The position numbers were made by a program, and so were the translations under genes. Below are positions 42,813 to 44,464 of a stretch of 64,000 nucleotides of DNA, piece after piece (within the stretch, counting starts at the first letter, position 1; every line of letters begins with the position of its first letter). Location of the stretch: NCBI RefSeq assembly GCF_045037415.1, contig NZ_CP173438.1; one strand, given 5' to 3'. The DNA comes from Escherichia coli. Lineage in GTDB: Bacteria; Pseudomonadota; Gammaproteobacteria; Enterobacterales; Enterobacteriaceae. Below the pieces are notes generated by a model. That model had not been told where the DNA came from. It was given only the letters and a program-made list of their open reading frames with translations, and searched no databases.

Positions 42813-42983
42813 ATGTTTGTCAAACCTGTTAAAGGGCGGTCAGTGCCTGACCCTGCCCGCGGCGACCTTTTGCCCGCCGAAGGGCGAAATGTTGACGAGA
42901 ACAACTACTGGCTGCGCCGTGAAGCAGCGGGTGATATCCGGCGCGTGAATAAAAAGGTGAACACCGATGACGATAAGCTTTAA
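42813..42983 (+). CDS. Small tail-module protein (DUF2635-like, 56 aa, below track cutoff)
   Basis: ATG 42813 to TAA 42981-42983, overlapping sheath start. Confidence 0.35.
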   Translation: MFVKPVKGRSVPDPARGDLLPAEGRNVDENNYWLRREAAGDIRRVNKKVNTDDDKL

Positions 42984-44464
42984 CACCATTCCGTCGAATA
43001 CGCTGGTTCCGCTGTTTTATGCGGAAATGGATAACCAGGCGGCGAATACTGCACAGGACAGCGGAGCATCGCTGCTGATTGGTCATGCCAATAACGGTGC
43101 AGAGATTGTTGCCAACAGTCTGGTGCTGATGCCGTCGGCAGACTATGCACGCCAGATTTGTGGTGCGGGAAGTCAGCTGGCGCGTATGGTCGAGGCTTAT
43201 CGCCAGACTGACCCGTTTGGCGAGCTGTATGTGATTGCCGTTCCGGAAGCCACAGGCGCGGCGGCAACGGTTACGCTGACGGTGACCGGGGAGGCAACCG
43301 AAACCGGCACGGTGAATGTTTATGTGGGACGTACCCGCGTGCAGGCACCGGTGACCAACGGCGATAACGTCGCGACGATTGCCAGCAGTATCAAAGATGC
43401 CATCAATGCCGTTCCGACCCTGCCGTTTACTGCCTCATCTTCGGCAGGCGTGGTCACACTGACCGCGCGTCATAAGGGGCTTTGCGGGAATGAAATTCCT
43501 GTCAGCCTCAATTACTACGGCTTTGGTGGGGGCGAAGTGCTGCCAGCGGGCGTACAGATTGCCGTGGCGACGGGGAACGCCGGAACGGGCGCTCCTGTTC
43601 TCACCGGCGCGGTGGCTGCAATGGCGGATGAGCCGTTTGATTATATCGGCCTGCCGTTCAACGACACGGCCTCCGTTAACACGCTGGTGACCGAGATGAA
43701 CGATACCAGCGGTCGCTGGAGCTATGCGCGTCAGCTGTATGGTCATGTGTATACGGCAAAGATCGGCACGCTGTCAGAACTGGTGACCGCAGGTGACCAG
43801 TTTAACCAGCAGCACATTACCCTGGCGGGGTACGAAAAAGAGAACCCAGACGCCTGCCGACGAGCTGGCGGCAAGCCGTACCGCCCGCGCAGCGGTGTTT
43901 ATTCGCAACGATCCGGCACGTCCCACGCAGACCGGTGAGCTGGTGGGTATGCTGCCTGCGCCGAAGGGGAAACGGTTCACGATGACCGAACAACAGACCC
44001 TGCTGTCTCATGGCGTGGCAACGGCGTATGTCGAAAGCGGGGTGCTGCGCATTCAGCGTGATGTCACCACGTACAGGAAAAACGCTTACGGTGTTGCGGA
44101 TAACAGCTACCTCGACAGCGAGACGCTGCATACCAGCGCGTATGTGCTGCGCAAACTGAAATCCGTCATTACCAGTAAGTACGGGCGTCACAAGCTTGCC
44201 AGCGACGGTACCCGCTTTGGTCCCGGTCAGGCGATTGTCACCCCGGCGGTGATCAAAGGGGAACTGCTGGCAACCTACCGTCAGCTTGAGCGTGCGGGGA
44301 TCGTGGAAAACTACGAACTGTTTAAGCAGTACCTGGTTGTGGAGCGTGATGCCAGCGATCCGAACCGCCTGAACACGCTGTTCCCGCCTGACTATGTTAA
44401 CCAGTTGCGTGTCTTTGCCGTGGTTAACCAGTTCCGTCTTCAGTATTCAGAGGAGTCTGCATAA
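42967..44464 (+). pseudogene. Tail sheath protein interrupted by a frameshift (track ORFs 42967-43938 and 43793-44464)
   Basis: Two overlapping ORFs in different frames jointly span one sheath-sized gene (~499 codons); frame switch lies in the 43793-43938 overlap, best placed near 43850. Confidence 0.6.

Follow-up and report, generated by a model that had tools for sequence, protein, structure and literature searches.

The window analysed here, a stretch of 64,000 nucleotides from an Escherichia coli genome (contig NZ_CP173438.1), contains an SfI/SfV-like prophage of about 40 kb inserted between tRNA-Ser/mtfA and zinT. Its ends are marked by a 20-bp exact direct repeat, CGGTTCTCGAAAACCGGAGT, found at 15793-15812 (attL) and 55886-55905 (attR). 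Within the prophage, the tail sheath gene (42967-44464, plus strand; SfI/SfV type, a homolog of Mu gpL) appears frameshifted in the assembly and is read as two overlapping ORFs, both on the plus strand: ORF1 (42967-43938; 323 amino acids) and ORF2 (43793-44464; 223 amino acids), the latter in frame +1 relative to the former. Of the three Pfam sheath domains, Phage_sheath_domII lies in ORF1 and Phage_sheath_1C in ORF2, and Phage_sheath_1 is divided between them, with its first half (profile positions 2-88 of 168) in ORF1 and its second (96-168 of 168) in ORF2; all three score above the Pfam cut-offs. The residues that match the intact protein, 292 at the N-terminal side in ORF1 and 206 at the C-terminal side in ORF2, add up to 498, which is the intact length. 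The two ORFs represent a single sheath gene interrupted within a domain, and a chance pair of ORFs is excluded.

This bears out the original prediction, which had read the two ORFs as a single sheath-sized protein and assigned it to the Mu type. The domain set, the full-length collinearity and the tube gene lying directly after the sheath gene are those of a contractile-tail sheath of the Mu gpL/SfV Orf11 type, and the repaired protein shares 36% identity, over 98% of its length, with the product of gene L of the Mu-like phage D108. The gene order (DUF2635 (Mup38-like), sheath, tube, assembly protein, tape measure) is the same as in phages SfI, SfII, SfIV and SfV, and the sole feature that distinguishes the assembly copy of the sheath gene from theirs is one extra base.

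The extra base was located by alignment with the intact 1497-bp sheath genes of phage SfI and of AZ146, a near-identical ST131 genome (99.99% identical over all 64 kb) that served as the reference for differences in the window. The region is 1498 bp long here, that is, 1 bp longer, and contains a single indel, an extra A at 43843/43844 in codon 293; the frame switch had been predicted near 43850, around GAGAACCCAGACG, which is right within a few bases. Relative to the AZ146 sheath gene the extra A is the only difference, and deleting one A restores a 498-residue protein identical to WP_001566767.1 of AZ146. After repair, 4 of the 498 residues differ from those of the SfI sheath, and at the DNA level the two genes are 98.5% identical. 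The insertion turns the hexamer GAGACC into GAGAACC (43840-43846, plus strand), and the duplicated A (43843-43844) occupies the position of the adenine that is methylated in this motif.

The insertion is rare. Matches to the sheath region occur in 1105 records of E. coli and in 12 of phages (SfI, SfII, SfIV, SfV and relatives), and at least 80% of the gene is covered in 1074 genomes. The span is 1497 bp in all phage records that align end to end and, among the E. coli matches listed, in all but one. Only one of the 980 E. coli genomes that hold the 71-mer centred on the site carries the insertion, namely A1.S1.126, in which PGAP annotates the sheath copy as a 'frameshifted' pseudogene. When the intact 70-mer was used as the query and 60 records were sampled along the whole ranking, none had an indel at the site; recurrent corruption of the sheath site in unrelated assemblies was not found among these 60, and their matches below 100% reflect ordinary substitutions.

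These counts bear on the possibility that the arrangement is functional, with ORF1 and ORF2 connected through programmed +1 ribosomal frameshifting or transcriptional slippage. The ORFs do overlap, and an A-rich stretch, GAAAAAGAGAAC, lies upstream of the switch; however, a single ORF is the rule, both in the 1074 genomes and in the 12 phage records with the 1497-bp gene, and it is what the functional phages SfI, SfII, SfIV and SfV possess. The insertion itself recurs in only one other record and in none of the 60 sampled. A two-ORF arrangement shared by homologous sheath genes had been named at the outset as the sign of a programmed event, and the homologs have one continuous ORF instead. A programmed event is thus next to impossible here.

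Indels on GGTCTC/GAGACC hexamers

Eco31I, reportedly described by Bitinaite in 1992 as a type IIS restriction-modification system, recognizes GGTCTC/GAGACC. The window differs from AZ146 by only five indel events and two substitutions in 64 kb. Four of the five indel events fall on GGTCTC/GAGACC hexamers (15794-15800, 28968-28973, 43840-43846 and 55887-55893), with the remaining one in a homopolymer run (A8). The homologous stretch of AZ146 contains only five such hexamers, four of which are corrupted in the window; the probability that at least four of five indels fall by chance in 30 of 64,000 positions is 2.4e-13 (binomial). In three of the four motif events, the identical base has been added at the identical place (GGT^T^CTC, equivalent to GAGA^A^CC).

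Besides the sheath site, the corrupted hexamers include both ends of the prophage. At the left junction, attL, alignment with AZ146 shows GGTTCTC in place of GGTCTC (15794-15800, plus strand) in the anticodon loop of tRNA-Ser(CGA) (15765-15855, plus strand), the integration site of the prophage. The extra T at 15796-15797 makes this tRNA unreadable: ARAGORN returns 'tRNA-???' with a 2-base anticodon for the window and a normal tRNA-Ser(cga) for the AZ146 copy. Such an insertion would make annotation pipelines lose or mislabel the tRNA. The same error, GGTTCTC for GGTCTC, is present in the attR copy of the tRNA-Ser segment (55887-55893, plus strand), so that both copies of the 20-bp repeat are affected alike. 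The remaining corrupted site reads AGAACC in place of GAGACC (28968-28973, plus strand) and lies directly after the stop codon of hokD (TAA, 28965-28967). The only uncorrupted site in the window is the GAGACC at 45093-45098 (plus strand). This intact site is followed by T (GAGACCT) and the four corrupted sites by C or G, which suggests that the miscall depends on the flanking context.

A genuine 1-bp insertion, inherited in a local ST131 subclone comprising the window strain and A1.S1.126, might instead have inactivated the sheath gene, in which case prophage particles would be tail-less or non-contractile and therefore non-infectious. Frameshift decay of prophages is common, the insertion is identical in two assemblies that are themselves non-identical, and PGAP takes the A1.S1.126 copy for a frameshifted pseudogene. 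Against this, an inherited insertion would have had to hit, by coincidence, one of the five hexamers present in 64 kb (approximately 5e-4) and to copy the form of the error seen at other motif sites, which include a broken tRNA anticodon loop. Two further observations, reported below, count against it: the other sites differ between the two assemblies, and a sibling assembly from the same project that lacks Eco31I is error-free at all six of its sites. Taken together, an inherited insertion is distinctly unlikely.

Eco31I methyltransferases and two sibling assemblies

In the ST131 strain EC958, Eco31I (EcoMI) is encoded on the genomic island GI-leuX and the adenine of GAG(m6A)CC is methylated at 100% of sites; GGT(m5C)TC methylation is predicted from the intact second methyltransferase, and prophages and genomic islands are reported to be enriched in GGTCTC sites (Forde 2015, PMC4659465). 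The hsd/mcr region of EC958 was also considered as the location of Eco31I and proved wrong, the locus being GI-leuX. Both modifications of GGTCTC/GAGACC register in the nanopore signal of E. coli ATCC 25922 (PMC12679398). The Eco31I locus was found in 634 of 5426 complete E. coli genomes; 591 genomes besides the one analysed here contain at least 80% of it, EC958 among them.

A1.S1.126, an E. coli from urine (Olsztyn, Poland), has a sheath gene 100% identical to that of the window; over 64 kb the two assemblies disagree at 16 aligned positions. These include differing forms of corruption at the Eco31I sites: GGTTCC rather than the window's GGTTCTC at the tRNA-Ser site, and GAAACC rather than AGAACC at the hokD site. 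Different corruptions of the same site in the two assemblies point to basecalling noise and not to an inherited mutation. The two also differ in three places where GATC reads GATT in A1.S1.126 and in the length of six homopolymers. In a further 40.7 kb of A1.S1.126, for which the GGTCTC sites of EC958 served as the intact reference, five of seven differences are at GATC (GATT/AATC) and one is at the only GGTCTC site present there, which has become GGTTTC. In total, five of six Eco31I sites are corrupted in A1.S1.126. The GATC and homopolymer errors of this assembly are typical of nanopore data.

The GI-leuX of A1.S1.126, located by synteny, contains both Eco31I methyltransferases intact and under the same protein accessions as in EC958; they are identical to those of EC958 and lie in the same context beside mcrBC. 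It differs from EC958 in its endonuclease gene, which is split by ISEc52 (record positions 1681187-1684179, where both methyltransferase genes are intact), so that the two methyltransferases are orphaned; the whole system lies outside the window. Judging from these genes, A1.S1.126 would methylate GGTCTC without restricting it. Two other frameshifts of A1.S1.126 are contractions of G6 to G5, one in irp2 (yersiniabactin HMWP2) and the other, shared with the assembly A1.S1.18, in the GP46 baseplate gene; the window has G6 at both places (4635 and 50875), like AZ146. The RefSeq 'pseudogenes' irp2 and GP46 are likely to be artefacts as well.

The loss of the endonuclease also bears on the idea that real, site-directed mutation altered four of the five Eco31I sites, either through selection for loss of the restriction site or through mutagenesis associated with the methyltransferases. 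Every change is restricted to the recognition hexamer and abolishes it. However, the endonuclease of A1.S1.126 is disrupted by an insertion sequence, so that there is no selective pressure, and at shared sites the outcome differs between the two near-identical sibling assemblies. EC958, which has intact GGTCTC sites, is one of the 591 other genomes with at least 80% of the locus, and a broken tRNA-Ser anticodon loop together with identical changes in both att copies is implausible as a set of real events. Site-directed mutation of this kind is vanishingly improbable. A narrower version, in which an ST131 subclone that has lost the endonuclease and kept the two methyltransferases accumulates real 1-bp indels at doubly methylated GGTCTC sites, is extremely unlikely; were it true, indels at GGTCTC would represent methylation-directed mutagenesis that had killed the sheath gene and the tRNA-Ser gene.

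A1.S1.18 provides a natural control. It comes from the same project as A1.S1.126 (adjacent accession series), carries the same prophage and shows GATC and homopolymer errors of the same kinds, the identical GP46 frameshift among them; core genes (tamB, pmbA, fimC and fimD) are flagged as frameshifted. No Eco31I sequence was found in the regions of A1.S1.18 examined, GI-leuX included. At record positions 4874539-4877694, ISEc23 adjoins a truncated mcrC, and GI-leuX has lost the Eco31I locus in its entirety; mcrB is flagged as frameshifted. All six GGTCTC sites of A1.S1.18 (four in the prophage region and two elsewhere) are intact, including the one that A1.S1.126 has corrupted, and the sheath gene of A1.S1.18 is a single ORF of the usual 1497 bp. 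If methylation underlies the errors, a strain with such clean sites should lack M.Eco31I, and this prediction held. The proportions of corrupted sites, 5/6 in A1.S1.126 versus 0/6 in A1.S1.18, differ with a one-sided Fisher p of 0.0076.

A probable methylation-induced consensus error

The association of the errors with the motif, the differing corruptions in the two assemblies and the error-free sites of the Eco31I-negative A1.S1.18 lead us to read the split sheath gene as an artefact: judging by this pattern, it is almost certainly a methylation-induced consensus error of nanopore-type sequencing and not a mutation. The host would be an ST131-type strain in which Eco31I methyltransferases modify every GGTCTC/GAGACC on both strands, placing m6A and m5C on the fourth base of GAGACC and GGTCTC, respectively. 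Basecalling or polishing software untrained on the doubly modified hexamer would then miscall the signal, typically by adding an A/T at the modified position (GAGACC to GAGAACC); since codon 293 of the sheath gene contains one of the window's five sites, the assembly would show two overlapping ORFs. The window's own genome presumably encodes the Eco31I methyltransferases, on a GI-leuX outside the window, and the error signature suggests that the sequencing platform was nanopore.

The indel relative to intact orthologs that marks a frameshift pseudogene is present, while the freedom from a systematic sequencing-error context that such a call also demands is not. Several marks of a consensus error were found: the motif is methylated in the lineage, many of its copies are hit, and the copies are clean in the methyltransferase-negative control. 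Against this reading stand the one unaffected site among the five motifs, the predominance of substitutions in the published descriptions consulted, and the shared form of the sheath insertion in the window and A1.S1.126, which common descent could also produce. The extra T in tRNA-Ser(CGA) belongs to the same class of artefact as the sheath frameshift. In reality the sheath gene is most probably one uninterrupted ORF of 1497 bp, and its 498-residue product the same as in other ST131 strains.

The split sheath gene is almost certainly no real biological feature, and the class of phenomenon to which it belongs is already known. Nanopore consensus errors concentrate at methylation motifs that are absent from basecaller training (Wick et al. 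2019, PMC6591954; Lohde et al. 2024, PMC11610573). Like the Dcm and Dam errors (Wick et al. 2019, PMC6591954) and the 'methylation-induced errors' (Lohde et al. 2024, PMC11610573) described in these studies, those seen here are confined to a short motif of a strain-specific methyltransferase, recur at many copies of the motif, are gone without the methyltransferase, and occur alongside GATC and homopolymer errors in the sibling assemblies. They differ in that the motif is an asymmetric, doubly modified type IIS site (m6A on one strand and m5C on the other), and in the dominant kind of error: in the published descriptions consulted the errors are mainly substitutions rather than insertions (PMC6591954), whereas the dominant error here is not a purine/pyrimidine substitution but a 1-base insertion, which creates false frameshifts. 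No paper on GGTCTC-specific nanopore errors, or on indels at the Eco31I motif, was found in the library searched. The Eco31I motif and its tendency to insertions may be under-reported, which is a point of quality control and not a discovery.

Since the sheath gene is most probably intact, the window supports no conclusion that the prophage is defective. It does carry a warning about data quality: public genomes of Eco31I-positive E. coli lineages that are labelled 'complete' and rest on native nanopore assembly can hold false frameshifts and broken tRNA genes at GGTCTC. Given the reported over-representation of this motif in prophages and genomic islands, calls of prophage integrity, pseudogene counts and cgMLST can be biased there.

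Other genes of the prophage and its neighbourhood

The original prediction had taken the frameshift chiefly as a biological lesion deciding whether infectious particles can form, with a sequencing or assembly error mentioned as a caveat. It is the caveat that the Eco31I motif pattern and the A1.S1.18 control bear out; the extra base lies on a methylation motif, and four of the five motifs in the window are in error. That this single lesion would be decisive was also overstated. The integrase gene (15908-16933, minus strand) keeps a 341-amino-acid ORF in the window, and the PGAP annotations of the two relatives examined (AZ146 and A1.S1.126) mark it as frameshifted. This frameshift, situated near the C-terminus and shared by the two, is probably real; with the integrase flagged in relatives, even a real sheath lesion would not be the only question mark over the prophage, whose excision may be impaired whatever the state of the sheath gene.

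The accompanying claim that every other head and tail gene is intact stands insofar as these genes are identical to the intact genes of AZ146; the exceptions are a missense change in the tail tube gene and a stfP remnant, the latter common to the annotated relatives. The missense change is a private C to T at 44729, relative to AZ146, A1.S1.126 and A1.S1.18, that converts codon 89 from TCG to TTG (S89L). A Dcm site (CCTGG) lies 6 bases downstream. The change may be a real SNP or an error.

Two further positions set the window apart from AZ146, A1.S1.126 and A1.S1.18. At 58001-58008 it has A8 where these have A7; by approximate mapping of the position, the run is apparently inside the transposase of IS1397 (IS3 family), where relatives annotate a programmed frameshift. 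If A8 were real and this run served as the slippery site, a fusion of orfA with orfB could result from the additional A; a homopolymer error is the more likely explanation. At 62435 the window has a private G in place of A, which approximate mapping puts in the hprS/hprR region and which shows no obvious error motif.

Upstream of the prophage, positions 1-14600 contain part of the yersiniabactin High Pathogenicity Island (irp2, ybtA, ybtP, ybtQ, ybtX, ybtS and an integrase gene). This part of the island adjoins tRNA-Asn, directly beside the prophage, and is identical to that of AZ146.
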